Shown: piece after piece, positions 14,503-58,955 of the stretch
Position numbering within the stretch: position 1 is the first letter of the stretch
Layout of the letters: each line of letters begins with the position of its first letter
Source: Mollicutes bacterium Phil14
Lineage (GTDB): Bacteria; Bacillota_I; Bacilli_A; ML615J-28; CAG-698
Length of the DNA stretch: 64,000 nucleotides
Direction: 5' to 3'
NCBI GenBank assembly: GCA_001940985.1
Contig: MSHB01000022.1
Span: 35,393-99,392 of the forward strand
Notes under the pieces: model-generated
What the model saw: only the letters and a program-made list of their open reading frames with translations
The model's database searches: none
What the model was told of the DNA's origin: nothing
Program-made: the position numbers and the translations under genes

Positions 14503-14600
14503 CAATCCTCCGTTTTCTGGCGACTGGCTGTCATACACTAATTAGCTTCAGACCCTATAGTTTTGCGTCATCACTTTTCAGTGATTTTGCCTTTTTCTTT
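14503..14600 (-). promoter_or_regulatory. c-di-GMP-I (GEMM) riboswitch, copy A.
   Basis: Minus-strand RNA AAGGCAAAAUCACUGAAAAGUGAUGACGCAAAACUAUAGGGUCUGAAGC...GACAGCCAGUCG. It has GGCAAA, a perfect 6-bp hairpin capped by a GAAA tetraloop, then GACGCAAAaCUAUAGGG (receptor-like). This matches the Vc2 pattern GGCAAACCAUUCGAAAGAGUGGGACGCAAAGCC. About 75% identical to copy B at 23141-23215. Confidence 0.8.
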
Positions 14601-15242
14601 TTTTATATCCTCAAGTATTTTTTTCCTGATTTTTTCTCTTTCTGCTTCAATAAATTTTTGTTTTTCTTCATCATTTTTCTTATTTTGACTAGCGATTTTT
14701 TCCTCTTTAACCGCTATAAACATTTTTCCTATTTCAATGATTAAAAGAAAGAAAAACAATAACATTAAAATTAAAAATATTAAACTTCTGTGATTTGCAA
14801 TTAAACCACCAATTTTAAACAGTGTTAAAACCTTAACAACTTTTCCCACATAATTTTCCTTAGTAACAAACTCTGTATCAAAAGTACTATTATTAACACC
14901 TTTCATAATAAACGAACCATCTAAATTAACATCAACAATTCTATGAACTATATATATCTTATTGCTTTTTGAATAATAAATAATATCATCACCAATTGTT
15001 AATTTTTCAAATGGCACTTCTTTTGAAAGAATGAAATCACCTTCATTTATTACAGGTTCCATTGAATCAGTTGGTACAACCGAATATATATAACCAAATA
15101 TTTTTGTAGGTTTGTTGTTTTTATAAGCATTAATTCCAACGATTATTATGGCAATAGCCAAAACAAACAATAAACAAGTAAATATCCCTAAGCATTTGCT
15201 GATGATACTTTTTACTTTAGGTTCTTTCATACTATTCACCAA
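14571..15242 (-). CDS. SipW-type signal peptidase I paralog with a C-terminal TM and a charged tail.
   Basis: 223 aa. N-terminal TM, VVPTDSMEPVINEGDFIL Ser box, IVHRIVDV His box, then a second TM (LIFLILMLLFFFLLII) and a K/E-rich tail. The last about 10 codons overlap the riboswitch A aptamer. Confidence 0.7.
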   Translation of the reverse strand: MVNSMKEPKVKSIISKCLGIFTCLLFVLAIAIIIVGINAYKNNKPTKIFGYIYSVVPTDSMEPVINEGDFILSKEVPFEKLTIGDDIIYYSKSNKIYIVHRIVDVNLDGSFIMKGVNNSTFDTEFVTKENYVGKVVKVLTLFKIGGLIANHRSLIFLILMLLFFFLLIIEIGKMFIAVKEEKIASQNKKNDEEKQKFIEAEREKIRKKILEDIKKEKGKITEK

Positions 15243-23087: not shown

Positions 23088-23217
23088 CACCACCTCACTT
23101 GAAACAAAAAAGCCAGAAATCTCCACAAAAAATTTGAGATAACTGGCTACCATTTCAGGCCCTATAGCTTTGCGTCACAACCTTTCGATTGCTTTGCCTT
23201 TAACATATACGCTTATT
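23088..23217 (-). promoter_or_regulatory. c-di-GMP-I (GEMM) riboswitch, copy B, with a terminator-type expression platform.
   Basis: Minus-strand aptamer AAAGGCAAAGCAAUCGAAAGGUUGUGACGCAAAGCUAUAGGGCCUGAAAUGGUAGCCAGUU. It contains GGCAAA, a hairpin with a GAAA loop and GACGCAAAGCUAUAGGG. Then comes the hairpin GCCAGUUAUCUC...GGAGAUUUCUGGC followed by UUUUUUGUUU. The terminator's 5' arm overlaps the aptamer's 3' end. Confidence 0.85.
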
Positions 23218-23280: not shown

Positions 23281-24753
23281 TTAATCTTCTTCAGTAGTTT
23301 CAATATTTTCTTCTTTCATAATTGGAGAAATTAAGCTCTTTAAACTTCCTTCATTATTAATGTAATTTACTACATCTTCTTGAGGAAGAGGTTTAGAAAA
23401 ATAAAATCCTTGAGCGTATTCAATACCAAATTTTTTAATTTTTTCAACTAATTCGTAGTTTTCTATTCCTTCACAAATAATAAATTTGTTACTGCTTTTA
23501 GCCAAATCTACTAATAGTTCTATATACTTATCTTGAATGAAAGACTCCTCATAGTCAAAAAAAGTTTTATCTAATTTAATAATATCTATAGGAGAATTAC
23601 CTAGTTTTACTAATGTCTTTTGATCAAGACCAACACCATCAACTGCTACTTTGAAACCAAGTTCTTTTAAGTCATTAATATTTTTATATACTATTTCATG
23701 ACGTTCAAACATCGCAAACTCAGCAATTTCAATTGTAATTGCATTAACTGGTATTTTATACTTTTTAGCAACATTTTGGAAAGTAACACCTAAGTTTTCA
23801 CTCACTAATTGTTTGGGGCTTAAATTAAATGATAATTGTAAATTTTTATGAATAAATTGCTTTTTAAGTTCGATATACTCTCTTATCAAAGCTTCAATTC
23901 CCCATATACCAACACCATTAATATCACCTGACTGTTCTAAAATATTAATAAAACTACCTGGATATAAAATACCTAGAGTTGGATGCTTCCACCTAAGCAG
24001 TGCTTCAAATCCATAAATATTATTTTCAGAAATGTTGATAATTGGCTGATAATATAAACAAAATTGATGTTCTTTTATCGCTTGTTTAATTTCATAATAC
24101 AATTGTAAATTTTCAGTATCATTTTTATCGCATTCATCACTATAAATAGTTACATTATTTCCACCACTATTTTTACAATTGAAAACAGCTAAATCTAAAC
24201 TTTTCATTAATTGCTTTAAATTGTGTCCATGATTAGGATAGAAGGCAACACCCACACTTATAGTTGGATTAATGATTGTATCAGAATATATCTTTATATC
24301 AACAGATGCCGCCTCACAAATTTTATTGGCACACTTTAAAACTTCATTTTTATCATAATCTTCTTTAACTAATATTAGAAACCTATCGTCACTAATTCTA
24401 CCAATTAAAGTCCTATTAGGTAAAACACTTCTAATATTTTTAATACTCTCATTTAGTACCTTTTTTCCATTTCCTTCACCAAAAGCATTTTGGATTTCTG
24501 TCATCTTATCATAATCAATCAAAATTAGAGAAAAGAACATATCACTAGGTAATTTGCTAATATAACTGTTTATTGAAGATATTATTTCATTTCTCTTTAA
24601 TACTCCTTCAACAAGACCCGCAACTTCGTTGTGATAATTATGTTTTTCCTTTTTCACTTTAATATATAGTAAAACACCTAAACCGGCTATTATCAATAGA
24701 GCAATCACTGAAAATAAAACATATGCTCCACTATTCCAATTTGCTAAAAACAT
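23281..24753 (-). CDS. Membrane-anchored protein with a degenerate GGDEF domain and an EAL domain. Possible c-di-GMP phosphodiesterase or c-di-GMP-binding regulator.
   Basis: 490 aa. N-terminal TM. The GGDEF position reads RISDDRF (degenerate). The EAL domain has YYQPIINIS...GFEALLRW, but the DDFGTG metal-binding motif reads DGVGLD, so its activity is uncertain. Confidence 0.75.
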   Translation of the reverse strand: MFLANWNSGAYVLFSVIALLIIAGLGVLLYIKVKKEKHNYHNEVAGLVEGVLKRNEIISSINSYISKLPSDMFFSLILIDYDKMTEIQNAFGEGNGKKVLNESIKNIRSVLPNRTLIGRISDDRFLILVKEDYDKNEVLKCANKICEAASVDIKIYSDTIINPTISVGVAFYPNHGHNLKQLMKSLDLAVFNCKNSGGNNVTIYSDECDKNDTENLQLYYEIKQAIKEHQFCLYYQPIINISENNIYGFEALLRWKHPTLGILYPGSFINILEQSGDINGVGIWGIEALIREYIELKKQFIHKNLQLSFNLSPKQLVSENLGVTFQNVAKKYKIPVNAITIEIAEFAMFERHEIVYKNINDLKELGFKVAVDGVGLDQKTLVKLGNSPIDIIKLDKTFFDYEESFIQDKYIELLVDLAKSSNKFIICEGIENYELVEKIKKFGIEYAQGFYFSKPLPQEDVVNYINNEGSLKSLISPIMKEENIETTEED

Positions 24754-24773: not shown

Positions 24774-27347
24774 TTATTTCTTGTAATTATATTTTTCTAT
24801 TAATTCTAAAGCGTCTTCATAAGGAACAGCTTTACTAATTAAGAAACCTTGAATTACTTCACATCCATTTTTCTTTAAAAATTGATATTGTTTTTCATCT
24901 TCAACGCCTTCAGCTATTATTTTCATATCTAAACTTATAGCTAAAGATATAATCTTTGAAACAATAATTCTTGAACTTTTATCGGTATTAATATATTTAA
25001 TAAATTCCTTATCTATTTTTATTGCATCAATTGGCAAATCTTTTAAGTATAACATCGAACTATAACCAGTACCAAAATCATCTAAGTGAATTATGAAACC
25101 ATGTTTTTTTAATACTTTCATTTTTTCTGCCATCAGTTTTATATTCTGTACTAAAAAAGTTTCTGTAATTTCTAGAGCTATCATATTAGGATTTACTTTT
25201 TCTTCTTCAGTCATTCCTATCATTTGAGTAACAAAACCATCTTGAATAAGTTGGGCAGGAGAAACATTAATTGAAATTGTTATCCCTTGACCTTCAAGTT
25301 TCTTAGCGATTTGTAAAGCTTGTCTTATTATGATTTTTCCAATAGGAATAATCATATTATTCTTTTCTGCTAATTCAATAAAATGCTGTGGAGAGTCATT
25401 AATATATTTAGGATTATTCCATCTAACCAAGGCTTCAAAACCAATAATCTTTCTATTACTAGCATCACATTGTGGTTGAATATAAACTATCAATTCACCT
25501 TTTTTAATCGCTTTACGTAAATCTTCTTCCATTAATTGTTCTTTTTTTATTAATTTACCTAAACTTATATCATAAATTATATAATCAGAAACATTCAAAC
25601 CTTTAGCTTTTTCAAATGCTATTTCAGCATATTCACAAATTGAATTATTATCTAATCCATCATATTTTTCCATTTCAATATTAAATATACCACTATGACA
25701 TCTAATTATTAAGGCATTAGCATCTATTTCTATAGGTTTTTTCAAAGTGTTTTTTAAATTATTCAACCAACTAATTACATCATTATATGTCTCAAGATTT
25801 TTAAATAATACTGCAAATTTGTCTTTACTTAAACAATATAAAATCATATCTTCTTTTAATAGTTCACTAACTAACTTTACAAAATTTAAAACAAGTTTGT
25901 TAATCATTTTATTACCAAAGATACGAGCATATCTCTCTAATGAATCAATACAAAATACTACTAAAGAACTTTCTATTTTTATTCCATTTTTTAAACTTGT
26001 ATTAACCTTCTCTAAATGTTTTTCTAAGTCCTTTAATAAAACTTCTTTTGTTGGGAGATGAGTAATTTCATCATAACTTATTCTCTTCACAGCATAATTC
26101 ATTTCTTCATATTGCTTTGTTACATCATCACCTATTATATAGTTATTAAATCCTATTTTTAAAGAAACTAAATTTATAACAATATTTTTTCCACTCAAAT
26201 CAACCAAGTGAATCATAAAGTGATTATTTTTTTCTATGTTTTCTAATATGTTACCATCACAATAGCAATCAAAATCCATTATATTCTTATAACTATTCCA
26301 ATCAATATTAAGTTTTTTAAAAGCAGAATTTCTATATATTATTTTTCCTTTTTTGTTAACTCTAAAGATATATGGTTTTGAATAATATAAAGATAATCTA
26401 GAAGATTGGATATCTTCATTTTTCTTAAAGCAGACACCAAATAATACTGCTAGCCCAACAACTAGTATCAATGATAATATCGTTAATAATAAAACTAGTG
26501 GAATAATTAACGATTTTTCGAATCCAACCAACTTTTCTTTATAAAAAACAGATATTAAATAAAAGTACTCACTTTGCTCGTTTATAACAATTTTATTATA
26601 TGTTAAATAACATCTTTGTCCTCGAACATAATAGCTATTATCAACACCTTCACTACCATTGATAATCATATCTATTAATTTTTCTTTATCTGAGTTTGTT
26701 GAAACACTGCTTAAATAATCATCATAGAAATAATCGCCTGTTTCTTTACCATTTTGGAAATATATATATCCATTTTTATTAATCAAAAATGCGTCTGGTT
26801 CATACTCTCGCCTCATACTAAATATGGGCATTAAAAATTCGTCTGCTCTAACAATGGCTACCCTATTATCATTAAAAAAGAATATCGCACATTTGCCTAA
26901 ATCGCAATCAGTAAAGGCATCTGTTAAATCGATTACACTAAATTTTTCATATGTAAAATTAGATAGAGAAAAACCACCTTTTATTTTGTGTGTTGAAGTT
27001 TCCAATATCAAATTCGAATTTTTTATTTCGCCAAATATTATATTTTCACAATTTATTAATTCAACATCATTTATATTTTTATTTAAATCTTTTAAAGTCC
27101 TATCGTGATAAGTGTTATAGAATGCATTTAAAGCCATAATATTATAATCTATTTGACTACTAATTGCATCGCTTGTTGAAAGATTATTTACATAAACTGT
27201 ATTTTCAATTCTTTTATCAATATAACCGTCTAGTATATGTTTGTAAAAGTTGTATGATACACCAATTATACATACAAAAACTAGCAAAAACGAAATGAGC
27301 GAACTAACAATAAACTTTTTCATAAATACCCTCTTAGTACACTGCAT
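24774..27347 (-). CDS. Sensor c-di-GMP phosphodiesterase. It has a periplasmic sensor domain between two TMs, a degenerate GGDEF domain and an active-type EAL domain.
   Basis: 857 aa. N-terminal TM, about 250-aa extracytoplasmic region, second TM, GGDEF-fold region lacking the GGDEF motif, then an EAL domain with YIQPQ...GFEALVRW and canonical HLDDFGTGYSS. Confidence 0.8.
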   Translation of the reverse strand: MQCTKRVFMKKFIVSSLISFLLVFVCIIGVSYNFYKHILDGYIDKRIENTVYVNNLSTSDAISSQIDYNIMALNAFYNTYHDRTLKDLNKNINDVELINCENIIFGEIKNSNLILETSTHKIKGGFSLSNFTYEKFSVIDLTDAFTDCDLGKCAIFFFNDNRVAIVRADEFLMPIFSMRREYEPDAFLINKNGYIYFQNGKETGDYFYDDYLSSVSTNSDKEKLIDMIINGSEGVDNSYYVRGQRCYLTYNKIVINEQSEYFYLISVFYKEKLVGFEKSLIIPLVLLLTILSLILVVGLAVLFGVCFKKNEDIQSSRLSLYYSKPYIFRVNKKGKIIYRNSAFKKLNIDWNSYKNIMDFDCYCDGNILENIEKNNHFMIHLVDLSGKNIVINLVSLKIGFNNYIIGDDVTKQYEEMNYAVKRISYDEITHLPTKEVLLKDLEKHLEKVNTSLKNGIKIESSLVVFCIDSLERYARIFGNKMINKLVLNFVKLVSELLKEDMILYCLSKDKFAVLFKNLETYNDVISWLNNLKNTLKKPIEIDANALIIRCHSGIFNIEMEKYDGLDNNSICEYAEIAFEKAKGLNVSDYIIYDISLGKLIKKEQLMEEDLRKAIKKGELIVYIQPQCDASNRKIIGFEALVRWNNPKYINDSPQHFIELAEKNNMIIPIGKIIIRQALQIAKKLEGQGITISINVSPAQLIQDGFVTQMIGMTEEEKVNPNMIALEITETFLVQNIKLMAEKMKVLKKHGFIIHLDDFGTGYSSMLYLKDLPIDAIKIDKEFIKYINTDKSSRIIVSKIISLAISLDMKIIAEGVEDEKQYQFLKKNGCEVIQGFLISKAVPYEDALELIEKYNYKK

Positions 27348-31811: not shown

Positions 31812-32105
31812 TTAAAGTGGTAAGTCTTTCCTTACAAACTTAACAGTTCCTAGTATATAACCTATTAAACCAAGTCCTAATAGACATCCAAATTTCCAAA
31901 TAAATGCCGTTGTTTCTTCTAATATTGAAACAACATCAAACATAGATATTATAGTAATATAATTGAAATAATTCAAAGAATCAAGTCTTACAACTGATGG
32001 AATAGTTTTACTACCGAATAGGCCTAAAATTGCGGCTACTAAAGCAAAAATACTTAAACCACCACCAATAGCCATTGAGCCACTATCAACTTGACCAGAA
32101 ATCAA
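31812..32105 (-). CDS. Small hydrophobic protein (97 aa). Possibly a remnant of the permease partner of the truncated ABC ATPase.
   Basis: 2-3 predicted TM helices. Start overlaps the stop of the upstream ABC ATPase ORF by 4 nt. Confidence 0.3.
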   Translation of the reverse strand: MISGQVDSGSMAIGGGLSIFALVAAILGLFGSKTIPSVVRLDSLNYFNYITIISMFDVVSILEETTAFIWKFGCLLGLGLIGYILGTVKFVRKDLPL

Positions 32106-32695
32106 ATTGTTTTTCCTCTTTCTTTTTCTTGATGTATAAATTCAATAAAGCGTTCTTGCATAACTGGGTCTAACCCACTTGTAGGTTCATCTAAAATCAA
32201 GACATCAGGATCACTCATAAATGCAACAACAACCGCCAATTTTCTTTTAACCCCTAAACTCATTCTTTTGGTTTCACCATTTAATGCTATTTCATCTAAT
32301 TCAAATAAATCTAATAACATTTTTAATCTTTCATTAATATGTATGCCTTGTAAATCTTGCATCATTTTAATGAATTCTTTTCCTGTTATTCCTGCGGGCA
32401 AAGCTATTTCACCTGGTATATAACCTACTTTAGCCAAAATTTCATAATGCTTATTAAATGTTTCATAGCCAAAAATTTTTGTACTCCCACTATCTGGTTT
32501 AGAAAATCCCATCAGATGACTGATTGTTGTAGACTTCCCTGCCCCATTAGGTCCTAAGAAACCAAAAACTTCGCCCTTTTCAACATCTATACTTACGCCA
32601 AAAACTCCACGACCAGAGCCATAATCCTTAGTTAAATTTTTAACTTCTATTATGCTCATTTTTCCTCCTTTTTTCAACACTGTTAACATTTTCAC
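32102..32695 (-). CDS. ABC transporter ATP-binding protein, C-terminally truncated (no H-loop). Possible decaying gene.
   Basis: 197 aa. Walker A GPNGAGKST, Q-loop, signature LSLGVKRKL, Walker B and D-loop LILDEPTSGLD. The ORF ends at TGA right after ...ERGKTI. No H-loop sequence is present in any downstream frame. Confidence 0.55.
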   Translation of the reverse strand: MKMLTVLKKGGKMSIIEVKNLTKDYGSGRGVFGVSIDVEKGEVFGFLGPNGAGKSTTISHLMGFSKPDSGSTKIFGYETFNKHYEILAKVGYIPGEIALPAGITGKEFIKMMQDLQGIHINERLKMLLDLFELDEIALNGETKRMSLGVKRKLAVVVAFMSDPDVLILDEPTSGLDPVMQERFIEFIHQEKERGKTI

Positions 32696-32798
32696 ATTGT
32701 TGAATTATAATATATATAACAATAATTGCAAAGAACAATTTTTTAATCACTGTAAAAAAATCAACACTTTTTATTAAATTGTTAAAAAGGAGTAAAAT

Positions 32799-33377
32799 AT
32801 GAAAGTTAGAAATCTAAATAACTCATCAAAAAAGACAAAAGCTTTAATTAAAAAGACCTTTGCGGAGATGATGTCAGAAAAAAAAGAATTAGGAAAAATT
32901 TCAGTGAGTGAACTAGTAAAAAGAGCCGATATAAACAGAGGGACGTTTTATGCTCACTATGATGATATCTACTGCGTAGCAGAAGATTATGAAAATGAAT
33001 TAATTGATACTTTTTTTAGTAAAGCAAAACTAATAAAATCTACTAATTATGAAGATTTTATGGATTCATTTTTTAATTATATTGAAGAAAATAATGAAAA
33101 CTACAAAATGCTTTGTAAATCTAATGATTTTCTTTTTGCAGCAAAAAAGCTATCAACAATCGCCAGCAACAAATTCATTGAACTTTTTAATAATGATTCA
33201 AGATTAAAAAATAAAGATTTTTTAAATATTGAAATTAATGTTTTTATAGAAGGTCTACTTTGTGAATATGTTAAATACTGTCGAGGTTATTCAGAAAATG
33301 GCATTACACAATTATATGAATATACAAAATATTGGGTTAAAAACTTTGTTAATAAAAGATTCGGAGAACAATTATAA
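32799..33377 (+). CDS. TetR/AcrR-family transcriptional regulator.
   Basis: 192 aa. N-terminal HTH pattern ISVSELVKRADINRGTFYAHYDD. Divergent from the ABC ATPase gene. The only convincing plus-strand gene in the window. Confidence 0.8.
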   Translation: MKVRNLNNSSKKTKALIKKTFAEMMSEKKELGKISVSELVKRADINRGTFYAHYDDIYCVAEDYENELIDTFFSKAKLIKSTNYEDFMDSFFNYIEENNENYKMLCKSNDFLFAAKKLSTIASNKFIELFNNDSRLKNKDFLNIEINVFIEGLLCEYVKYCRGYSENGITQLYEYTKYWVKNFVNKRFGEQL

Positions 33378-33917: not shown

Positions 33918-35018
33918 TTATTTATTTAATCCATTAATATTTTTTAAAACATTTGTTGGGAAAGTTGCAATCTTTAGTTTTTCTAAATATCTGCTTTTAA
34001 TTCCTTCTTGAATCATCTTATCTAACAAAGTCGTAAAATCTAGTTCATCAAAAAGATAAAAAGCAAGAGATCCGGGAATAGAGTTTATTTCATTAACAAA
34101 TAGTTTTTTACTATCTAAATCATATAAATAATCAACTCTAATTACTCCACGAACAGAAAAACTTTTGGCTATTTTTTTAGTTGTTTTCGTAATTTCATCT
34201 TTTAAATCAAGATTTTCAAATTCAGCTGGAAATACTCTACTAACATCTACTCCTTCATACTTGTTAGCAAATGTTAAAAACTCTTTTGCTCCTTTTATTT
34301 CTTCTATTGCACTACAACTATCACCTAAAATAGCTTGATTATATTCTCTATAATTTGTCAAACACTTTTCCACTATTATTTCTTTGTCATACTTAAAAGC
34401 AGTGTTTAAAGCCCAAAACAAATCTTCTTCATTTTTAACTTTAAAAATTCCAATACTTGAACCTAAACTACAAGCTTTAATTATAACTGGAAAACCAAGA
34501 CTAGTAATTGATTTCAAACATTCATTAGCGTGTAAGACCCAGTCACTTTCTAAAATGTGAACATATTCAATATTATTAATATCATAATAATTTAACAATA
34601 CTTTCGTTATATGTTTATTTTGAAAAATGCTAGCACTTAAAACTGGACATGATGAATATGCAACTCCTAATGTTTCTAAAAAACCAGCAATTGTTCCATC
34701 TTCAACATTTTTACCATGAACTGCTGGAATAACAAAATCTATTTCTCTTTTTTTCTTAATTAAGCCTTCTCTTTGTAAATAAAGCTTATTCCCCTTATTT
34801 ATAAAATAGACGTCTTTCCCAAAAACATCATGCCTAAATGTTTCAATTTTATCAAAGTCACTATTTTCTAATAAACGATAATCATTAGTTAAATAAATAG
34901 GTATTACATTATACTTATTTTTATCTAAAGCATTTATTGTTTGAATGGCAGTAATGGTTGATATATCTTTTTCAACGCTATTTCCTCCAAACAATACAAC
35001 AATATTTTGTTTTTCCAA
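33918..35018 (-). CDS. ddl: D-alanine--D-alanine ligase.
   Basis: 366 aa ATP-grasp protein. N-terminal VVLFGGNSVEKDISTITA Ddl signature. Adjacent to a murF-like gene. Confidence 0.85.
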   Translation of the reverse strand: MEKQNIVVLFGGNSVEKDISTITAIQTINALDKNKYNVIPIYLTNDYRLLENSDFDKIETFRHDVFGKDVYFINKGNKLYLQREGLIKKKREIDFVIPAVHGKNVEDGTIAGFLETLGVAYSSCPVLSASIFQNKHITKVLLNYYDINNIEYVHILESDWVLHANECLKSITSLGFPVIIKACSLGSSIGIFKVKNEEDLFWALNTAFKYDKEIIVEKCLTNYREYNQAILGDSCSAIEEIKGAKEFLTFANKYEGVDVSRVFPAEFENLDLKDEITKTTKKIAKSFSVRGVIRVDYLYDLDSKKLFVNEINSIPGSLAFYLFDELDFTTLLDKMIQEGIKSRYLEKLKIATFPTNVLKNINGLNK

Positions 35019-35152
35019 TAAATTCCCTCCATATCAATACAATATATGCTTTTAAATAATAAATATATCATTTATTTATTTAAATTATGCTATTTATAGT
35101 ATTTTTTAAACTTAAAAACAAATTAAAAAGCACCACTAAGTGATGCTTAAAT

Positions 35153-36694
35153 TTATATTTTATATATATCTGTAATATCATTTTCAATCAATAATATTTT
35201 TTCTTTTTTAATACCTTTATATATATCAAATCCTTCATTAAAACTATTAACAATAGCTACATTATCATAACCTAATTCTTCTAAACCCTTCTGAATATAA
35301 CTTGATGCTTTATTTTTAACTAAAATTACCATATCACAAGATTCTTTTATATATTTAGCAAGAGAATAGTTAATTTCTTCTTCTAATTTGCCTCCTTCAA
35401 CAATCCCCGGAGTTATTAAAACTTTGTATGAGTCAAACATCTTCAAAGTATCTAAGGCATTCCTAAATCCGACTTTATTAGAGTTGTAACTATCGTTTAA
35501 CACAAGCTCATCATAAAAGTATTCTAATTTCAAACGGTTTTTCTCTCCATCATACATTAAAATTCCTTTTTCAATTGAACTTTTTTTAACATTAAAAACC
35601 TTTGCCATAGCTATTGCACACAAAATATTATAAATATTATGCCATCCTAAAATTTTAGTCACAATAGAATAATTTTCATCTCGACTAATCACTTCAAACT
35701 TTAGTCCTTCGCGATTATAGACAATATTTTGTGCCTTAAAATCGGCGTTTTCGTTTATTGCTACAGTTATTTTGTTTTTATATTTTTCTGATTCTTTTTT
35801 TATATTTTTATCATCTATATTTAACACTACTTTTTTAGTACTACTTGCTAAAAGCATTTTCTCATTAATTATGTTATCTAAACTTTTAAAAGTTTCTAAA
35901 TGCTGTTCTCCTATCGCAGTAACAATACCATAATCAGGTTTTACCAAATCAATCAAACGTTTTATATCATTTTTTTCACTAGCACCAAATTCAAAAATTG
36001 CTACCTCTGTATTTTTACTCATATTTTCATTAACACTTAAACAAATACCATTTAAAGTATTATAAGACTTTTCAGTTCTAAATGTTATAAACTCTTCTTT
36101 TAAAATATTATATAAAATTGCTTTTGTTGAAGTTTTTCCATAACTACCAGTAATTGCAATCTTTTTACAACCAATACGCTTTAGTTTTTTCTGACATTTT
36201 ACTTTATAAAACAAATATATTCCTTTTTCTATTGGTAACATTAAACAAGAAGATATAAAAACTAAAATGTTTTCAAATAAAATCAAAATAATAATAGCAG
36301 ATAACAACTCTTTAAGATTAAATTTCACTAATATCAAAGTCGCTAAAAGACTATTCACTATTAAAATTCCAATATATAATCTTATTATTCTTGTTGTGAA
36401 CTTTAATTTAACAATCTTTTTTTCTTTTTTTTTCAAAACTAAAAATAAAGAACCTATCAAGACAAACAATATCATTCCGTATATCTTATCACTTATAAAT
36501 ATTAATGGAATCATTGCTAAAAACAAATAGTTTTTATTTTTAAATTTATAATAATCCTTAAATATTTTTTTATAACCAGACAAATGATAATGAGCTTGTT
36601 GGTAGATTTGTAAAATATCATTAGTTATTCTTACTAAAACTAAAACACCCATCACAATTGATAAATATTCTAATATATTTCTTAATATTTCCAT
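35153..36694 (-). CDS. murF: MurF-like Mur ligase (UDP-MurNAc-tripeptide--D-Ala-D-Ala ligase family) with an unusual roughly 170-aa N-terminal transmembrane region.
   Basis: 513 aa. Residues about 1-170 are hydrophobic helices. The Mur ligase central domain follows with KIAITGSYGKTSTKAIL and TEKSYNTLNGICLSV (compare MurF TEGNxNNxIGxPLT), then a C-terminal domain. The usual N-terminal UDP-MurNAc-tripeptide-binding domain is absent. Confidence 0.65.
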   Translation of the reverse strand: MEILRNILEYLSIVMGVLVLVRITNDILQIYQQAHYHLSGYKKIFKDYYKFKNKNYLFLAMIPLIFISDKIYGMILFVLIGSLFLVLKKKEKKIVKLKFTTRIIRLYIGILIVNSLLATLILVKFNLKELLSAIIILILFENILVFISSCLMLPIEKGIYLFYKVKCQKKLKRIGCKKIAITGSYGKTSTKAILYNILKEEFITFRTEKSYNTLNGICLSVNENMSKNTEVAIFEFGASEKNDIKRLIDLVKPDYGIVTAIGEQHLETFKSLDNIINEKMLLASSTKKVVLNIDDKNIKKESEKYKNKITVAINENADFKAQNIVYNREGLKFEVISRDENYSIVTKILGWHNIYNILCAIAMAKVFNVKKSSIEKGILMYDGEKNRLKLEYFYDELVLNDSYNSNKVGFRNALDTLKMFDSYKVLITPGIVEGGKLEEEINYSLAKYIKESCDMVILVKNKASSYIQKGLEELGYDNVAIVNSFNEGFDIYKGIKKEKILLIENDITDIYKI

Positions 36695-36926: not shown

Positions 36927-38723
36927 CTATTCATCAGCATTTTCAATTATGTATCTTTTATATTGTGATGTATACCATTTTTTATATAATCCATTTTTAT
37001 TAAACAATTCATTATGATTCCCAATTTCACACACCTTGCCATTATCTAAAATTATTATTTTATCAGCTTCCTTAGAATTAGCTATCATATGAGAAACTGT
37101 CAATGAACTTACTTCACCTTTTTCATTATAGATATTTCTAAATATCTTATCTTCTGTATAAATATCCAATGATGCTGATGGTTCATCCAAAATATAGTAT
37201 TTATTGTTAGTAAAATATGTTCTTGCCAAAGAAGTAAGTTGCCATTGTCCACCAGACATTTCGATTCCATCATCATAATATATACCAATAACTGTATCAA
37301 TTCCTTTTTCCCATGTAGAAACCAAATCAAATATTCCACTTTTCAAACAAGATTGTTTTATTAATTCATCATTATTTATTTCATTAAAATTTGATAAGGC
37401 TATAATTTCTCGAAAAGGAAGAGAATAGTTTATATAGTTTTGAAATAAAACAGCAAACTTTTTTCTAATAGTAGAAAAGTCATAATCATAAATATTTTTA
37501 TCATTTAATAAAATACTACCTCTCTCTATTTTATAAAAACACAACAATAATTTTATAATTGTTGACTTACCTGATCCATTGCTTCCTAACAAGGCAACTT
37601 TTTCTCCTGGTTCAATAGTAAATGAACAATCTTTCAAAACATAATAATTGGTATTTGGATATTTAAACCATACATTTTTAAATTCAATTTTGGGAATTGA
37701 TTTATCTTGCTTTAAACAACCTTTTTTTTCATACAAAATATTTTCATTAAAAAAATCATTTACAATAGAAACGTTATTAACATCATATAAAAAATTATTA
37801 AAATCAGAAAATATCAAATTTAAATTATCTTGAAAGTTAGTAATAATTCCTAAATAATACGATATTAAAGCAATTGTGATAGTTCCAATTTTGTACTGTT
37901 GTACAAAGACAATCAAAGAAAAAATATAGATCAATATTCCAAAAAATCTAACAAAATCGGAACTTCGGCTCTCTTTATTTTTAAAATGAAATTGATTATT
38001 ACTTAACTCGCTTTCTAGCGTTTCTATCTTTTCATAAAAAAAATCTTTATTATTAAACATTCTGGTTTCATAATTTGTAATTTTATTTTCTATAATTCCT
38101 TTATAATATAATATTTTTTTTGAAATTTTTTGAACGTTATTTGTATGTTCATTCTTCTTCTTAACCATATAATTACTTAAAAAAATTAATATTGGTAATG
38201 CTAATATAGCAATAATAAAGATACCTATATTTATCTTAATTAACACTAATATTAGCATGATTGAAGATATAAAATCACTTATTAAACTCAAAGTATTCCA
38301 TCCAATATCAGCAAAGTCATCATACTTACTTCTAATAAATTTCATTTTATCATTTAATGAACATTCTTCATAATATCTTTGATCAATGTTCCTCATTTTT
38401 TTTATAATATTTTTTTCTAAAAAAAACATCATATTCTCATTATATCTATCATTGATATAAATGTCGACTGGATTTAATACTTTTTTAAAAGAATATGCAA
38501 ATATCAATAACAAAGACAAAATCACAATTTCTTTATGAACCACATTGTTAACTTCAAATTGCGAAATTATATTACTTAAAATCTTAGAATAAAATATCCC
38601 ACTAAACGTAAATAACAAAGATATTACAATTTTAAGTATACAAAAAAAGGGACTTGCTAAAAAAGAAATTTTAACAGATTTCAATAATTCAATTATTTTT
38701 TTCTTCATTTGACCCTCCATCAA
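36927..38723 (-). CDS. ABC exporter, fused transmembrane domain plus ATPase (second subunit of a heterodimeric pair).
   Basis: 598 aa. Six N-terminal TMs then an NBD with LLGSNGSGKST, LSGGQWQ and ILDEPSASLD. Confidence 0.85.
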   Translation of the reverse strand: MMEGQMKKKIIELLKSVKISFLASPFFCILKIVISLLFTFSGIFYSKILSNIISQFEVNNVVHKEIVILSLLLIFAYSFKKVLNPVDIYINDRYNENMMFFLEKNIIKKMRNIDQRYYEECSLNDKMKFIRSKYDDFADIGWNTLSLISDFISSIMLILVLIKINIGIFIIAILALPILIFLSNYMVKKKNEHTNNVQKISKKILYYKGIIENKITNYETRMFNNKDFFYEKIETLESELSNNQFHFKNKESRSSDFVRFFGILIYIFSLIVFVQQYKIGTITIALISYYLGIITNFQDNLNLIFSDFNNFLYDVNNVSIVNDFFNENILYEKKGCLKQDKSIPKIEFKNVWFKYPNTNYYVLKDCSFTIEPGEKVALLGSNGSGKSTIIKLLLCFYKIERGSILLNDKNIYDYDFSTIRKKFAVLFQNYINYSLPFREIIALSNFNEINNDELIKQSCLKSGIFDLVSTWEKGIDTVIGIYYDDGIEMSGGQWQLTSLARTYFTNNKYYILDEPSASLDIYTEDKIFRNIYNEKGEVSSLTVSHMIANSKEADKIIILDNGKVCEIGNHNELFNKNGLYKKWYTSQYKRYIIENADE

Positions 38724-40479
38724 ATTTTTTCATTTGAAAATTGTAAAAATTATAATATTCACCCTTGCGAGACATTAACTCACTATGTGTGCCTTCTTCA
38801 TAAATTTTTCCATCTTTAAGCAAAAGTATTTTTGAAGACATCTTCCCCACAAAAATTCTATGAGATATTAAAAAAACTGTATGCTCATTAGATAATTCTG
38901 AGTATTTTTTAAACAATCGATCCTCAGCTTCAACATCTAAAGAAGCTGATGGTTCATCTAAAATAATGATATCTGATTTCTTAAAGTTCATTCTTGCTAG
39001 TGCTAATTTTTGCCATTCTCCTCCTGATAATTCTCTCCCATTATCATCAAATTTTTTAGAAATATTAGTCTCTAAATCTCTGTCAGAAAAAACATCTAAT
39101 AAATCAGCATCTTTAATAGCTTTTAATATATCTTCATCATTATTAATATTTTTCAAATCGCTTATGGCGATACTTTCTCTTAGTGACAACGAATACTTCC
39201 CAAAGTTTTGAAATAATGTCCCGATTTTTTCTCTTACAGAAGATAAATTATATTTCTCCAATTCTATTCCATTAATTTTTATACTGCCAGATAATGGTTT
39301 ATATAGTCCTAAAATTAATTTTACAACCGTACTTTTACCAGAACCATTTGTTCCAAGTAGACAAACTGTATCTCCTCTGTTGACTTTAAAACTAACTCCA
39401 TTAAGGACTAGTTGACTAGAGTTAGGATATTTAAAATACACATCATTTAATTCTAAAGTTTTGAAATCTTTCAAACAAATCCCTTCACTTGTATTATAAT
39501 TTCCACCTTGATTAATAAATTTGTAATATTTATCGTAATATAAAAAGAACCTATAACTTTGCCCCAAAACATTATTAACAAAACCTATTGAATATACATA
39601 TACCAACGAAACTATTGATACATAAAATTGTATATCACTAATAGCTATTCCATTATTAAATGCTTTTGTAAAAATTCTAATTATAACAATTCCAAAAGGT
39701 ATAATTGGTATTAATTTTATAATAATAGACAATATCATATTTTTTCTTGCTAACATTTCATTTTTATCTATATATTCTTTTTTCTCACAAAAATATTTCT
39801 TCTCAATATACTCATATGAATCGTATAATTTCATATCCCTAATAGGCACCCCATCTGTTAACATCCATCTATAATAAGCTGTTTTTCTAATGTCCGGTAT
39901 CATTTCAATATGCCAATCATCTAATTTTTTACCAAATATGAAACTTATAATTGAACAAGGTATAATTGAAACAATAAATAATATACCACCATAAAAATCA
40001 TATCCAATTAAAACATATGAATAATAAAAAAATATAATTATGCTTGTAACTTGACTCACCATAAGTAACGGGGAATTAACCATAACATTTATAGATCTTT
40101 TTATAGTCGCAATAATATTATAATACCTTGGATTTTCTAAGCATTCACAATCAATGGTCAATAACTTATCATAAAAAACTTTTTGAAAATGTCTTTTAAA
40201 ATTAAAATTAATTTTGACAGTTATTAATCTTTTTATACGTTTGAATATATAAGTTAACAAAAACGCGGCAACAATTAGACATATATATACATATATAATA
40301 TCAAAATCATTTGTTAAAAAACTATCAATTATTTTTTTTACTATTAATGTATCTATATAAGGACATACATATATAGCAAATGATAAAAAACAATATGACA
40401 AAAATAATAATTTGTTTTGAATAAATATAAATTTAATTATATAATTAATTTTTTTTATTTTTTTCAATACTACCTCCAA
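38689..40479 (-). CDS. ABC exporter, fused transmembrane domain plus ATPase (first subunit). Overlaps its partner by 35 nt.
   Basis: 596 aa. Six TMs then an NBD with LLGTNGSGKST, LSGGEWQKLALAR and ILDEPSASLD. Confidence 0.85.
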   Translation of the reverse strand: MEVVLKKIKKINYIIKFIFIQNKLLFLSYCFLSFAIYVCPYIDTLIVKKIIDSFLTNDFDIIYVYICLIVAAFLLTYIFKRIKRLITVKINFNFKRHFQKVFYDKLLTIDCECLENPRYYNIIATIKRSINVMVNSPLLMVSQVTSIIIFFYYSYVLIGYDFYGGILFIVSIIPCSIISFIFGKKLDDWHIEMIPDIRKTAYYRWMLTDGVPIRDMKLYDSYEYIEKKYFCEKKEYIDKNEMLARKNMILSIIIKLIPIIPFGIVIIRIFTKAFNNGIAISDIQFYVSIVSLVYVYSIGFVNNVLGQSYRFFLYYDKYYKFINQGGNYNTSEGICLKDFKTLELNDVYFKYPNSSQLVLNGVSFKVNRGDTVCLLGTNGSGKSTVVKLILGLYKPLSGSIKINGIELEKYNLSSVREKIGTLFQNFGKYSLSLRESIAISDLKNINNDEDILKAIKDADLLDVFSDRDLETNISKKFDDNGRELSGGEWQKLALARMNFKKSDIIILDEPSASLDVEAEDRLFKKYSELSNEHTVFLISHRIFVGKMSSKILLLKDGKIYEEGTHSELMSRKGEYYNFYNFQMKKFDGGSNEEKNN

Positions 40480-40750: not shown

Positions 40751-41515
40751 CTAAGAACAAATAAAATTCAAAAGAATAGATAAAAACTTCTCTTTTTCAT
40801 CTATATAACTAAAATGCCCACCACGATAAAAAACTTTCATTTCACTTCCGTTGATTAAATTATTCATTGTTTTGCTATCATTTAGAGGTACTTCTTTATC
40901 AAAAACGCTTCCAATAACTAAAGTTTTACATTTAATCATTTTCATTTCTTTCTTTAAGTCCTTTTTAACAACTTTTTTAAAAGTGCCTCTCATATTATAT
41001 GAAAGCATATTATAATCCCTTGATCCATTTTTTCTAATAAAACTATCATAATTTTTATTATTAAAAACATAAACCATTAGTTTTTTTATCTTGTATAAAT
41101 AAAGCTTTGAGTAATACTTAAAATTATGGTGGCAAATGCCAGCAGCATTAACTAAAACAATCCCCTCAACGTTAAAACTGCTAGCATATTTAATTGCTAC
41201 TCTTCCTCCAAAAGAATGTCCAACAAGTATAACTTTATCAATTTTTTCTTCTTTTATTAATTGGTGCAAGTGATTACTATAATCATCTACACCTATTGCT
41301 TTGTTTGGTTCATCACTTAAACCAAATCCTAAAAAGTCAACATTATAAATATTATACTTTATCCCACTTTCTTTTATTTTTTCAATAACATAATCAAAAG
41401 TATTATGGCTTTGACCCCATCCATGTAAAAAAATAATACTTAGAGAATCATCACTATCTAGATGTTTCTCATAATACATATCACCATTTTTTGTTTTTAT
41501 ATATAAATCTCTCAT
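40751..41515 (-). CDS. Alpha/beta-fold hydrolase (esterase/lipase family).
   Basis: 254 aa. GHSFGG nucleophile elbow (GxSxG), with IFLHGWGQS near the N-terminus. Confidence 0.8.
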   Translation of the reverse strand: MRDLYIKTKNGDMYYEKHLDSDDSLSIIFLHGWGQSHNTFDYVIEKIKESGIKYNIYNVDFLGFGLSDEPNKAIGVDDYSNHLHQLIKEEKIDKVILVGHSFGGRVAIKYASSFNVEGIVLVNAAGICHHNFKYYSKLYLYKIKKLMVYVFNNKNYDSFIRKNGSRDYNMLSYNMRGTFKKVVKKDLKKEMKMIKCKTLVIGSVFDKEVPLNDSKTMNNLINGSEMKVFYRGGHFSYIDEKEKFLSILLNFICS

Positions 41516-55275: not shown

Positions 55276-57669
55276 TTAAGCTCTTAAAGTTGCTTGATAT
55301 CTCTTTTCTAATTCTTTTAATATCTTATTAACTTTAGAGTTAATTACATCATCTGTTAATGTTTCATATGATGTAAATGTTAATTTAATAGCTAATGATT
55401 TTTCATCTTCTGCCACTTTATCACCAACGTACAAATCGAATATCTTAACATCACTTAACAATTTCTTATCAACACTAATAATTGTATCAATAATATCACT
55501 TGCATTAATATTCTTTTTCATTACTAAAGCGATATCTCTTTCTACGCTTGGCACTTTACTAATTGGTTTATAAATTACTGTTTCAAGTTCATTATTTAAG
55601 ATTTCATTTAATTTTATTTCAGCTACATAAACATCTTTCAAATCTTCTTTTTGAGCAAATTTAGGATGTAGCGCTCCAACATAACCACATAACTTGCCAT
55701 TGTAATGAATAGTAGCAGTTCTTAATGGATGCATCTCTTGACATTCTTTTTCAAGTGGACGATATTCAAATTTTATTTTCAAATTCTTAAATGCTGTATC
55801 AATTATTCCTTTAATTAAATAGAAATCACATTTTTCAACATTTCCACGCCATAAAAGCGAACTAAAATTATTACTCATAACTATTGAAAGAGTTTCTTCT
55901 TCAATAAACTTATTGTTCTTTTCATAATATACTTTACCAATTTCATAACTAGCTACGTCTTTAATCTTACGGTTAGTACAATATTTCATATAGTCAATAA
56001 TACTTGGTACTAATCCTTTTCTCATTTCGCTATGATCACTACTAATAGGATGCATCAACTTAATTGGATTAGATTCTGTATCGTGCAATATTGTAAACGT
56101 CTTATTTTCTTGCTCACTAACTAATGAATAAGTAATTACTTCGTTTAATCCCATATCAACTAAAGTATGTTTTAGTTCTTTTCTATTCTTTTGATAATTA
56201 GTTAACAAACCACTTCTACTATCATTAGGTAAAGTCAAAGGCATTTTTTCATATCCATATATACGACCAACTTCTTCAACCAAATCAGAAGGAATCGTTA
56301 TATCCATTCTTCTACTTGGAACTAAAACTTTAATATTTTTGCCTTCTATTTCACATTTAAAGTTAAGACGTTTAAAAATATCTATAATTTCTTCATCTTT
56401 TAATTCTATTCCAAGTCTAGATGAAATAAATTCATTTGTAACAATGATTTCTTTATTTTCTTTTTCTTTTTCACCTTTAAAACTAATGTTTTTACTTACC
56501 TTAGCATTAGCTAAAGTCTTGAATAAATAAGTTGCATACTCTAATGCTAACTCACATCTATTAGTGTCAACACCTTTTTCATAGCGATTAGATGATTCAC
56601 TTCTTAATCCTAATCTACTAGATGTAAGCCTAATGCATGTTGAATCAAAAACAGCAGTTTCTAATACCATATCTTTAGTATCAGTTGTTATTTCAGTATC
56701 AAGGCCGCCCATAACACCAGCTATTGCTACAGGTTTTTCTCCATCAGTAATAACTATATCATTTTTATTTAATGTTCGTAAATTATTATCTAAAGTAGTA
56801 ATTTTCTCATCTTCATTTGCTTTTCTTACTACTATTTTATTTCCTAATTTTTGATAATCAAAAGCGTGTAATGGTTGACCAAAAAGAGCTAAAATATAAT
56901 TTGTTATATCAACAACATTATTAATAGGTCTAACTCCAAAACTAATCAAACGTGAACGAAGCCATCTTGGAGATTCTTGAATTTTCAAATCTTTAAATAC
57001 TCTAGCATAGTATACTTTACAATCACTTGTTTGAATTTCAACATTAACACTATCTTCAAGCTCACCCTTTACTAAATCAAATGCAATTGGTTTTAAAGGA
57101 CGATTGAATACTGCACTTACTTCATAAGCAACTCCTAGCATACTTAAAAGATCCCCACGATTAGGAGTTAATCCTAATTCTATAACTTCATCTTCTAATT
57201 CTAAGCACTTTAAGGCATCATCACCTGGAGTAACTTTATCTTTGAAATAATAGATACCATTTTGATATTCTTCACTAATATATTTAGATTCTAATCCTAT
57301 TTCTTTTAATGAACATAACATTCCAAATGATTCAACACCACGAATCTTTGATTTTTTAATTTTGAAATCACCTGGTAAAACGGCATCTAGCATTGCTACT
57401 ATTACAAATAATCCAGCCTTTACATTAGGTGCTCCACATACAATTTGTAATACTTCGTCTCCAACATTTACCTTACAAATATGCAAGTGATCTGAATCTG
57501 GATGATCTACACATTCTAAAACTTCACCAACTACTAAATTAGTGCCACTAACAACTTTTGTAACTCCCTCAACTTCTGTTGAATATAAACTTAAAGTATT
57601 AACTATATCTTCTTTTGACAAACCCTCAAGGTCAACTAATTCTTTTAACCAATTTAATTTTACGTTCAT
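55276..57669 (-). CDS. pheT: Phenylalanine--tRNA ligase beta subunit.
   Basis: 797 aa. N-terminal tRNA-binding (EMAP-like) domain, B3/B4 and B5 domains and a C-terminal FDX-ACB domain. Directly downstream of pheS. Confidence 0.9.
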   Translation of the reverse strand: MNVKLNWLKELVDLEGLSKEDIVNTLSLYSTEVEGVTKVVSGTNLVVGEVLECVDHPDSDHLHICKVNVGDEVLQIVCGAPNVKAGLFVIVAMLDAVLPGDFKIKKSKIRGVESFGMLCSLKEIGLESKYISEEYQNGIYYFKDKVTPGDDALKCLELEDEVIELGLTPNRGDLLSMLGVAYEVSAVFNRPLKPIAFDLVKGELEDSVNVEIQTSDCKVYYARVFKDLKIQESPRWLRSRLISFGVRPINNVVDITNYILALFGQPLHAFDYQKLGNKIVVRKANEDEKITTLDNNLRTLNKNDIVITDGEKPVAIAGVMGGLDTEITTDTKDMVLETAVFDSTCIRLTSSRLGLRSESSNRYEKGVDTNRCELALEYATYLFKTLANAKVSKNISFKGEKEKENKEIIVTNEFISSRLGIELKDEEIIDIFKRLNFKCEIEGKNIKVLVPSRRMDITIPSDLVEEVGRIYGYEKMPLTLPNDSRSGLLTNYQKNRKELKHTLVDMGLNEVITYSLVSEQENKTFTILHDTESNPIKLMHPISSDHSEMRKGLVPSIIDYMKYCTNRKIKDVASYEIGKVYYEKNNKFIEEETLSIVMSNNFSSLLWRGNVEKCDFYLIKGIIDTAFKNLKIKFEYRPLEKECQEMHPLRTATIHYNGKLCGYVGALHPKFAQKEDLKDVYVAEIKLNEILNNELETVIYKPISKVPSVERDIALVMKKNINASDIIDTIISVDKKLLSDVKIFDLYVGDKVAEDEKSLAIKLTFTSYETLTDDVINSKVNKILKELEKRYQATLRA

Positions 57670-57678
57670 AGTTACCTC

Positions 57679-58701
57679 CTAAAATTGCTTCAAGAAACGA
57701 GGATCTGAGATATAGAAATTTCTAATATCATCAATACCATGTTTCAACATTGTAATTCTTTCAATTCCAATACCAAAAGCAAAACCTTTATATACATCTG
57801 GATCATATCCAGCCATTTTCAAAACATTAGGATGAACACTTCCTCCACCTAACACTTCAATCCAACCACTGCCTTTGCAAAGTGGACAACCCTTACCACC
57901 ACATTTGAAGCAAGTTACATCAACTTCAACGCTTGGTTCAGTAAAAGGAAAGTATGATGGTCTAAATCTAATTTTACAATTCTCACCTAACATTTTTTTC
58001 ATAAGCAAACTTAAAGTTCCCTTTAAATCACTCATTTTTATATCTTTATCTACTACTAGTCCTTCAAGTTGCATAAATTGATGTGAATGAGTTGCATCAT
58101 CATCATCACGGCGATATACCTTACCAGGGCATATTACTTTAATTGGACTACCTTTTGCTTTTAACATAGTTCTTGCTTGAACTGGAGAAGTATGAGTTCT
58201 AAGCAAAATATTAGGATTAATATAAAAAGAATCTTGCATATCACGGGCAGGATGATCATGAGGAAGATTCATCATCTCAAAGTTATACAAATCTTCTTCT
58301 ACTTCAGGGCCTTCAACTACATCATATCCCATCCCTACAAATATTTCTTCCATTTCTTCGATAGTTTTTGTTAACACATGCAAGTTTCCTAAAGGAATAT
58401 CTTTACCAGGTAAAGTTACATCAATAGCTTCACTTTTTAGTTTGCGTTCAACTTCTTCTTCTTTAATTTTTTCAAGACGTTTATTAACTTCTTCTTCAAT
58501 CATGTTCTTGAATTCATTAACTTTTTGTCCAATTTCTTTTTTCATATCGCCACTAAACTCACGCATATGAGACATAATTTCTTGTAATGGACTCTTCTTT
58601 CCTAAATACAAAGCTTTAGTTTCATTTAATTCTTGAATGCTTTTAGCTTCTTGAATTTTTTTCTTTGCAATCTCTCGCATTTCTAATAATTTTGTAATCA
58701 T
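57679..58701 (-). CDS. pheS: Phenylalanine--tRNA ligase alpha subunit.
   Basis: 340 aa. Class II aaRS motifs ([23 protein letters not shown]). GGAGGAAAGAA ribosome-binding site. Confidence 0.9.
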
Positions 58702-58704
58702 TTC

Positions 58705-58955
58705 TTTCCTCCAAATAAAAAATCCTTAGAAAATTAATTCTAAGGACGAAATCTTCGCGGTACCACCTTAGTTCAAAATACAAATGTATTTTGCACCTCA
58801 ACTGTAAAATTAACGCTTTTACTTAAACGGACTCTATTAAAGCCACTCCAAGGGTGAATTCATAGGGTTTTTACTATAAGAAATTTCAGCTACATTCTTA
58901 CTCTCTGAAAATAAAAACTAATCTACTACTACTTCCTTATCACAGTATTATATAC
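58705..58955 (-). promoter_or_regulatory. T-box leader (tRNA-Phe-responsive riboswitch) upstream of pheST, with a terminator/antiterminator.
   Basis: The minus-strand leader contains an AG-box (CAGAGAG), a candidate specifier region with UUC (GAAAUUUCUUA) and the conserved T-box sequence AAGGUGGUACCGCG. A terminator hairpin CCUUAGAA-UUAAUU-UUCUAAGG plus UUUUUUAUUU follows. A promoter TTGATT...TATAAT lies at about 58960-58990. Confidence 0.85.

Follow-up and report, generated by a model that had tools for sequence, protein, structure and literature searches.

We describe a predicted integral-membrane ligase of the MurF clade encoded in a 64,000-nucleotide stretch of DNA from Mollicutes bacterium Phil14 (GenBank assembly GCA_001940985.1, contig MSHB01000022.1, positions 35,393 to 99,392 of the forward strand). 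We refer to this whole stretch as the window and use its own numbering for all features located in it. The window is AT-rich (∼26% G+C) and carries nearly every gene on the minus strand, including a complete open reading frame (ORF) at 35153..36694 (minus strand) of 513 amino acids plus stop codon with an ATG start, as judged from the ORF list, full-length homologs, and an AlphaFold model. From its sequence, the product is a MurF-clade ligase in which a five-helix membrane domain replaces the soluble uridine diphosphate (UDP)-binding domain 1, and this architecture is conserved. The best explanation, to which we assign a probability of roughly 0.62, is that this transmembrane (TM) MurF adds D-alanyl-D-alanine (D-Ala-D-Ala) to the N-acetylmuramyl (MurNAc)-tripeptide at the inner face of the membrane and serves the window organism as a housekeeping enzyme.

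The ligase part of the protein comprises residues ∼179 to 513. The central and C-terminal Mur ligase domains named in the original prediction, which had been made from the letters of the window, are kept, and the two motifs quoted there are found at residues 183 to 190 (GSYGKTST) and 212 to 221 (NTLNGICLSV). The central ATP-binding domain (residues ∼179 to 366; 35597..36160, minus strand) contains the P-loop TGSYGKTS at residues 182 to 189 together with the conserved residues E235, H265, K279, and N292, and it matches Pfam Mur_ligase_M (PF08245) over residues 181 to 364 with an E value of 3e-39. The C-terminal domain (residues ∼367 to 513; 35156..35596, minus strand) was recognized from alignments and from a weak match to Pfam Mur_ligase_C (residues 396 to 502; 21.6 bits, under the cut-off of 28.4), and retains R387 and the DxxNxN motif. 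When aligned with Escherichia coli MurF, the P-loop (TGSxGKTS), E235, H265, K279, N292, R387, and D401/N404/N406 are identical to the E. coli residues and invariant.

The closest NCBIfam model is murF (TIGR01143) with 198.8 bits, matched at profile positions 69 to 375 only, and the other Mur families score lower (MurC, 83 bits; MurD, 70 bits; MurE, 57 bits). The top PDB sequence matches are the MurF structures 3zl8, 1gg4, and 4qdi, with alignments beginning at query residue ∼156 to 173. The same preference is observed for 77 relatives, with a median identity of 30% and 121 to 133 bits against E. coli and Monoglobus MurF compared to ∼24% identity and 34 to 43 bits against MurC, MurD, and MurE; the E. 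coli and Monoglobus enzymes are 34% identical to each other. These data place the ligase part in the MurF clade, with its ATP/Mg catalytic residues retained. MurF domain 1 could not be found, and in tblastn comparisons of 89 loci every match began at residue 60 of canonical MurF or later. MurT models scored 28 bits, their cut-off being 800, and no glutaminase gene is present among the conserved neighbors. Pfam and NCBIfam scans gave no match to PgsB/CapB or PgsC/CapC, even when the membrane domain was scanned with E values up to 5 allowed.

Residues 1 to 155 (36230..36694, minus strand) instead form five hydrophobic helices, in agreement with the earlier claim that the N-terminal third of the protein takes the place of a substrate-binding domain. 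Kyte-Doolittle 19-mer peaks of at least 1.6 are located at about residues 3 to 31, 57 to 89, 102 to 128, and 126 to 156, and the AlphaFold model has helices at 2 to 33, 40 to 49, 53 to 61, 71 to 89, 101 to 124, and 130 to 174, the last of which runs unbroken from the membrane to the first strand of the ATP domain. The full-length model, obtained with a 30-sequence alignment (identities down to 31%), has a mean predicted local distance difference test score (pLDDT) of 89.4 and a predicted template modeling score (pTM) of 0.82. The AlphaFold prediction that had been proposed as a check also folds the N-terminal domain confidently when modeled alone (pLDDT of 92.5 and pTM of 0.87). A Lys/Arg-rich juxtamembrane helix (residues 156 to 178; 36161..36229, minus strand) prolongs TM5 as far as the ligase and, in alignment, corresponds to the final helix of canonical MurF domain 1; the model helix from 141 to 174 is unbroken, and the phmmer alignment to 3zl8 begins at query residue 156. 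Between three and six hydrophobic peaks are present in the first 200 residues of all 77 full-length relatives, compared to none in E. coli or Monoglobus MurF.

The positive-inside pattern is clear. Family means for Lys plus Arg are 4.6 in loop 1, 6.9 in loop 3, and 6.5 after TM5, versus 0.3 at the N terminus, 0.5 in loop 2, and 0.7 in loop 4, which predicts five TM helices with the N terminus outside and the C terminus inside and puts the ligase in the cytoplasm, as its ATP dependence requires. In the 30-sequence alignment, Q32 and Y36 (in LxxxQQxxY) and T100, R102, and R105 (in KLKxTxRIKR) are invariant in the membrane part, and P154 and E156 (in PIE) nearly so. Given the charge pattern, these residues are therefore predicted to lie where TM1, TM4, and TM5 meet the cytoplasm. 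The N-terminal region is more than a tether, being a compact and conserved domain whose cytoplasmic face bears invariant polar residues. No Pfam relative was found for residues 1 to 155, nor at E values up to 5 across 18 members, and comparison of the membrane-domain profile with the N-domain of E. coli MurF revealed no similarity (hhalign probability of 0.05). The possibility that TxRxxR is a leftover of MurF domain 1, raised by a MAFFT alignment that set it beside the canonical TTDTR, was rejected on the same hhalign value. Kinship with EpsG, suggested by a weak precomputed match for one N-domain fragment, could not be reproduced, as the 18 members gave scattered and inconsistent sub-threshold matches.

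The original prediction had left two possibilities, a genuinely membrane-bound MurF variant or an ORF that is mis-joined, or that has its true start internally at about residue 170. The fused architecture recurs across related genomes, where we had been advised to look for it: more than 100 protein clusters of 490 to 556 amino acids cover 94 to 100% of the query, and a scan of one genome per species returned at least 588 relatives, each from a genomic locus. For locus analysis we kept 80 loci from different species, and 78 of these encode a single ORF of about 500 to 545 amino acids rather than a small membrane gene followed by a separate, ordinary MurF that begins at about residue 170. A profile built from residues 1 to 165 alone retrieved 1918 representative proteins at E values up to 1e-3 and 829 at up to 1e-10, with the membrane domain located N-terminally in 148 of the best 150 matches and protein lengths of ∼510 to 560 amino acids or shorter. 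The exact window protein also occurs in independent assemblies.

Start signals precede the upstream ATG as well. The putative ribosome-binding site GAAAGGA (36706-36700, minus strand) lies 5 nucleotides before the ATG at 36694, and a consensus scan detected a promoter-like site, TTGGCG-17-TGcTATAAT (36746-36718, minus strand), with 10 of 12 matches plus a TG extension, although such a match is no proof of function.

What speaks for a small membrane gene wrongly joined to murF is that some database entries hold the N-terminal domain alone, at 150 to 250 amino acids. We inspected two of these short calls as candidates for true split genes and found a −1 frameshift in a poly-A run in one (L088, 1990-2010) and an in-frame TAG in the other (L087, 3235-3250), with the ligase frame going on in both, so that neither is a split gene. 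The Lys-rich linker after TM5 is coded by poly-A runs, at which gene calls in public assemblies come out frameshifted or cut short, and the number of apparent stand-alone N-domain proteins is thereby inflated. One locus on a 1.49 Mb contig (L086, GCA_021628625.1) is riddled with breaks of this type throughout. A protein beginning at residue 170 would moreover be left without any domain 1. Recurrence, invariant membrane residues, start signals, and independent assemblies therefore lead us to reject the mis-joined ORF and the internal start, an artifact that we regard as almost certainly not the explanation, and to support the membrane-bound variant.

Clustering of all neighboring ORFs from the 80 loci revealed two conserved partners. 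The ddl gene for D-alanine–D-alanine ligase, identified with Pfam and NCBIfam, lies directly downstream in the window (33918..35018, minus strand), confirming the adjacency that had been pointed out before, and immediately downstream of the TM-type murF in 70 of the 80 loci. Its product keeps the DdlB catalytic residues E15, S150, K215, Y216, R255, D257, E270, and N272, so it is predicted to be a ligase of the D-Ala-D-Ala type. The gap between the two genes measures 134 nucleotides in the window compared to 0 to 50 in most relatives, and a consensus scan placed a putative terminator-like hairpin with a T-run in it, right after the murF stop and before ddl (35128..35148, minus strand). This hairpin might uncouple or attenuate ddl expression in the window.

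The other partner is a cytoplasmic alpha/beta hydrolase of ∼255 amino acids, encoded immediately upstream of the TM-type murF in 66 of the 80 loci and present also in L081, L082, and L086, loci from close relatives of the window organism. The window homolog is a 254-residue alpha/beta serine hydrolase (40751..41515, minus strand), recovered by tblastn with the 66 neighbor-cluster hydrolases at 33 to 39% identity in the ten best matches and E values down to 8e-42. All of 67 aligned sequences share the triad S101/D206/H234 and a GSxDY motif, and the relatives of the hydrolase are generic esterases or S33-like proteins only. By sequence and position, the hydrolase is the predicted third member of a conserved module. 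Two MsbA-like ATP-binding cassette (ABC) exporter genes (36927..40479, minus strand; Pfam and NCBIfam) stand between hydrolase and murF in the window; the pair is lineage specific and absent at this position in the three close relatives, in which an LtaS-like gene, the hydrolase, the TM-type murF, and ddl follow one another without interruption and are followed by tilS-hpt-ftsH. The window is syntenic with these loci. A second, putative insertion in the window, at 32102-33377, comprises genes for a TetR-like regulator and an ABC ATPase as well as a small membrane ORF, all located between ddl and tilS.

Other peptidoglycan genes are occasionally found near the module: in L056, murD precedes it by two genes; in L048, murE follows it directly; and in L009, L005, and L069, murG or murC is located within 10 kb. 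The module of Lachnospiraceae is located downstream of Pth- and Mfd-like genes and is followed in some loci by a SpoVT/AbrB-like gene, all named from their sequences. In Pseudalkalibacillus (L077, 13086-16790) and Aquibacillus (L038, 12771-13493), a gene for a VanX-like D-Ala-D-Ala dipeptidase of the M15 type comes after the module and, in the former, a class B penicillin-binding protein is encoded there as well, an arrangement that resembles a precursor-remodeling cluster. Three loci whose hosts are labeled Mycoplasmatota or Bacilli (L021, 14244-21383; L026, 3765-11396; and L045) contain a very large ORF of ∼2400 amino acids, where complete, shortly downstream of ddl, and in L021 directly after it.

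The hosts of TM-MurF include Lachnospiraceae, Ruminococcus, Acutalibacteraceae, Oscillospiraceae, Oscillospirales, Peptococcaceae, and Erysipelotrichaceae, uncultured "Bacilli," genomes labeled Mycoplasmatota or Acholeplasmataceae, and a few genera of Bacillaceae. Butyrivibrio hungatei, Stecheria intestinalis, Anaerolactibacter massiliensis, Gracilibacillus massiliensis, and Gracilibacillus kekensis are cultured examples. The window protein is 98% identical to its cluster representative, and the 1.49 Mb contig carrying a member of its 90%-identity cluster suggests a small genome. Searches for a second MurF of canonical type or a second Ddl gave none within 10 kb in ∼90 loci. The locus of the window and of its relatives has a housekeeping setting beside tilS-hpt-ftsH. 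TM-MurF is probably, as far as these genomic data tell, the housekeeping and only MurF in the small-genome window organism. A search of plasmid records returned canonical MurF only and no TM type.

Database names for the relatives (P0278, P0322, P0498, and P0499) are MurF in some records and, in more recent ones, simply "Mur ligase family protein"; the latter can probably be explained by the fact that all three scored members fall under the TIGR01143 cut-off. A curated record for B. hungatei MB2003 names the TM-type protein MurF; the gene lies at ∼2.97 Mb of a 2758-gene chromosome, a position that fits, as weak evidence, bhn_I2651, the only gene listed as murF. Outside the Firmicutes, two Cyclonatronaceae genomes (Balneolales type, 49 to 54% G+C) have a TM-type MurF without adjacent ddl or hydrolase (L042, 9911-11554; L071, 1465-3064), which may reflect transfer. 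The neighbors in L042 were considered as a dcw cluster lacking murF, an idea that we discarded as, read by eye, they resemble glycogen-metabolism and outer-membrane genes. Three loci labeled Muribaculaceae (L012, L028, and L048) carry the Firmicutes-type module, L012 and L048 at 24% G+C and L028 with Pth- and Mfd-like genes upstream as in Lachnospiraceae loci, and are probably mis-binned contigs.

If TM-MurF is a membrane-embedded MurF, its ATP-dependent domains would be seated at the inner membrane face, where D-Ala-D-Ala from the co-transcribed Ddl would be joined to the MurNAc-tripeptide to give the pentapeptide precursor. Q32, Y36, T100, R102, R105, and E156 would then stand in for domain 1 by binding the nucleotide-diphosphate end of the acceptor, and the pentapeptide product would be released beside MraY. 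Several points weigh against this reading. The window protein and the two other scored members (L077, 247.5 bits; L001, 226.6 bits) miss the TIGR01143 cut-off of 288.6 bits. The family motifs TPG(I/M)VE(L/G)G and L(I/L)END(I/L)xDxY in the C-terminal domain occupy the places of canonical GDMxELG and KGSR, and the incoming or the accepting substrate could therefore differ. Canonical MurF exists in other Clostridia, as in the murE-murF-mraY order of Monoglobus, and in Bacillaceae the sporadic occurrence, the dedicated Ddl and hydrolase, and the VanX-like neighbors look like an accessory module. The acceptor-binding site itself is one that we infer for the invariant juxtamembrane residues from topology alone.

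These points bear in part on the main rival idea, that hydrolase, TM-MurF, and Ddl constitute a self-contained membrane module coexisting with a canonical soluble MurF, which might complete stem peptides locally or under stress, recover recycled peptides, or alter the pool of precursors. A module that brings its own Ddl and a conserved hydrolase would suit such a role, as would its restriction to a few genera within Bacillaceae, the VanX-like dipeptidase and class B penicillin-binding protein described above, the Gracilibacillus flanks that are unrelated to cell wall genes, the unusual C-terminal motifs, and the commonness of canonical MurF in Clostridia. We nevertheless consider an accessory paralog unlikely, while giving it some weight, given that no canonical MurF or second Ddl accompanies the module within the distance searched, that similarity within this very widespread family follows a roughly vertical pattern, that its neighborhoods are of housekeeping character, that genomes of ∼1.5 Mb, in which a duplicate pathway is improbable, are among the hosts, and that the TM type is on no plasmid record found.

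The membrane domain could also bind a lipid-linked acceptor, undecaprenyl-diphospho-MurNAc-tripeptide (the tripeptide form of lipid I or lipid II), in which case the pentapeptide would be completed after MraY. The UDP-binding domain 1 is wholly gone and an unrelated membrane domain is found in its place, with two invariant Arg and one Thr at the boundary of membrane and cytoplasm, the expected position of a lipid diphosphate, and Mur ligase relatives without domain 1 act on non-UDP substrates, MurT on lipid II being one example. The invariant Tyr, Gln, and Glu are nevertheless suited to nucleotide recognition at least equally well, the scheme needs an MraY that routinely accepts the tripeptide precursor, and it is simpler to assume a tethered enzyme that still works on the soluble UDP substrate, so we hold a lipid-linked acceptor to be rather improbable. 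An equally doubtful extension of it is that, with a dedicated Ddl and serine hydrolase, the module provides a membrane-face route that completes or edits the pentapeptide, beyond textbook peptidoglycan synthesis. A role outside peptidoglycan, with D-Ala-D-Ala or another Ddl product attached to a different carboxylate-bearing envelope molecule, appears very unlikely. The LtaS-like sulfatase-family gene upstream of the hydrolase in the window, L081, L082, and L086, the Acholeplasmataceae or Mycoplasmatota labels of some hosts, and the score under the curated MurF cut-off could be taken in its favor, but the LtaS link is confined to the close relatives of the window, murD, murE, murG, or murC lie near the module in other loci, and the catalytic part is clearly nearest to MurF.

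Elsewhere in the window, the minus-strand region 4327-27347 looks like a gene cluster controlled by cyclic di-GMP (c-di-GMP). Two c-di-GMP-I riboswitches (14516-14601 and 23135-23208, minus strand) precede runs of ORFs without a Pfam match, among which we note a 2549-residue ORF with no recognizable domain (4327-11976, minus strand), and two GGDEF-EAL proteins (23281-24753 and 24774-27347, minus strand) are encoded just upstream of the riboswitch-preceded runs. A further GGDEF protein is encoded at 215-1336. A T-box leader (58739-58952, minus strand) is located upstream of pheS-pheT (57679-58701 and 55276-57669), an ordinary arrangement.

In the textbook scheme of peptidoglycan synthesis, MurA to MurF are soluble cytoplasmic enzymes and MraY catalyzes the first membrane step. 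No description of a transmembrane MurF was found in full-text literature searches or in a Mur ligase phylogenomics paper. If TM-MurF serves its hosts as their working MurF, the last "cytoplasmic" step would be membrane bound in many dominant Firmicutes of the gut and rumen, MurF inhibitors and structural models that rely on domain 1 would not be applicable to these hosts, and pathway reconstructions may wrongly report murF as missing since the protein fails the MurF cut-off. The conserved partner hydrolase would in that case point to an undescribed step tied to D-Ala-D-Ala addition. The family also allows a direct test of Mur ligase action on a lipid-linked acceptor.

Compared to canonical MurF (E. 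coli, 1GG4; Acinetobacter baumannii, 4QDI; Thermotoga maritima, 3ZL8), the TM type shares the P-loop, the Mg/ATP residues, and the DxxNxN motif, and its ∼30% identity is near the 34% observed between MurFs of different phyla. Canonical MurF is also paired with ddl in the ddl-murF operon of Bacillus, whereas the gene order of the TM type is hydrolase-murF-ddl. The canonical enzyme has a soluble domain 1 of ∼80 to 100 amino acids, in contrast to the unrelated 155-residue five-helix membrane domain of the TM type, which fails the TIGR01143 cut-off and in which GDMxELG and KGSR have given way to TPGxxELG and ENDxxDxY. MurT, of the MurT/GatD lipid II isoglutaminyl synthase, is a Mur ligase that likewise lacks domain 1 and has lipid II as its substrate, but it is soluble and free of TM helices, works with a glutaminase partner, and amidates its substrate instead of adding a dipeptide, and the window protein is far closer to MurF. 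The poly-gamma-glutamate synthetase PgsB/CapB is a Mur-family amide ligase that is membrane associated via an N-terminal hydrophobic segment and has small membrane partners; it differs from TM-MurF and its conserved five-helix domain in having a single anchor helix, another substrate, and no linkage to ddl. Fused Mur enzymes were among our matches as well, namely, MurE-MurF (8F5D), MurF-alanine racemase (PRK11930), and MurC-Ddl (PRK14573), and indicate that MurF tolerates fusions joining neighboring steps of the pathway. Those fusions add soluble enzymes and retain domain 1, whereas TM-MurF swaps domain 1 for a membrane domain without a known enzymatic fold.

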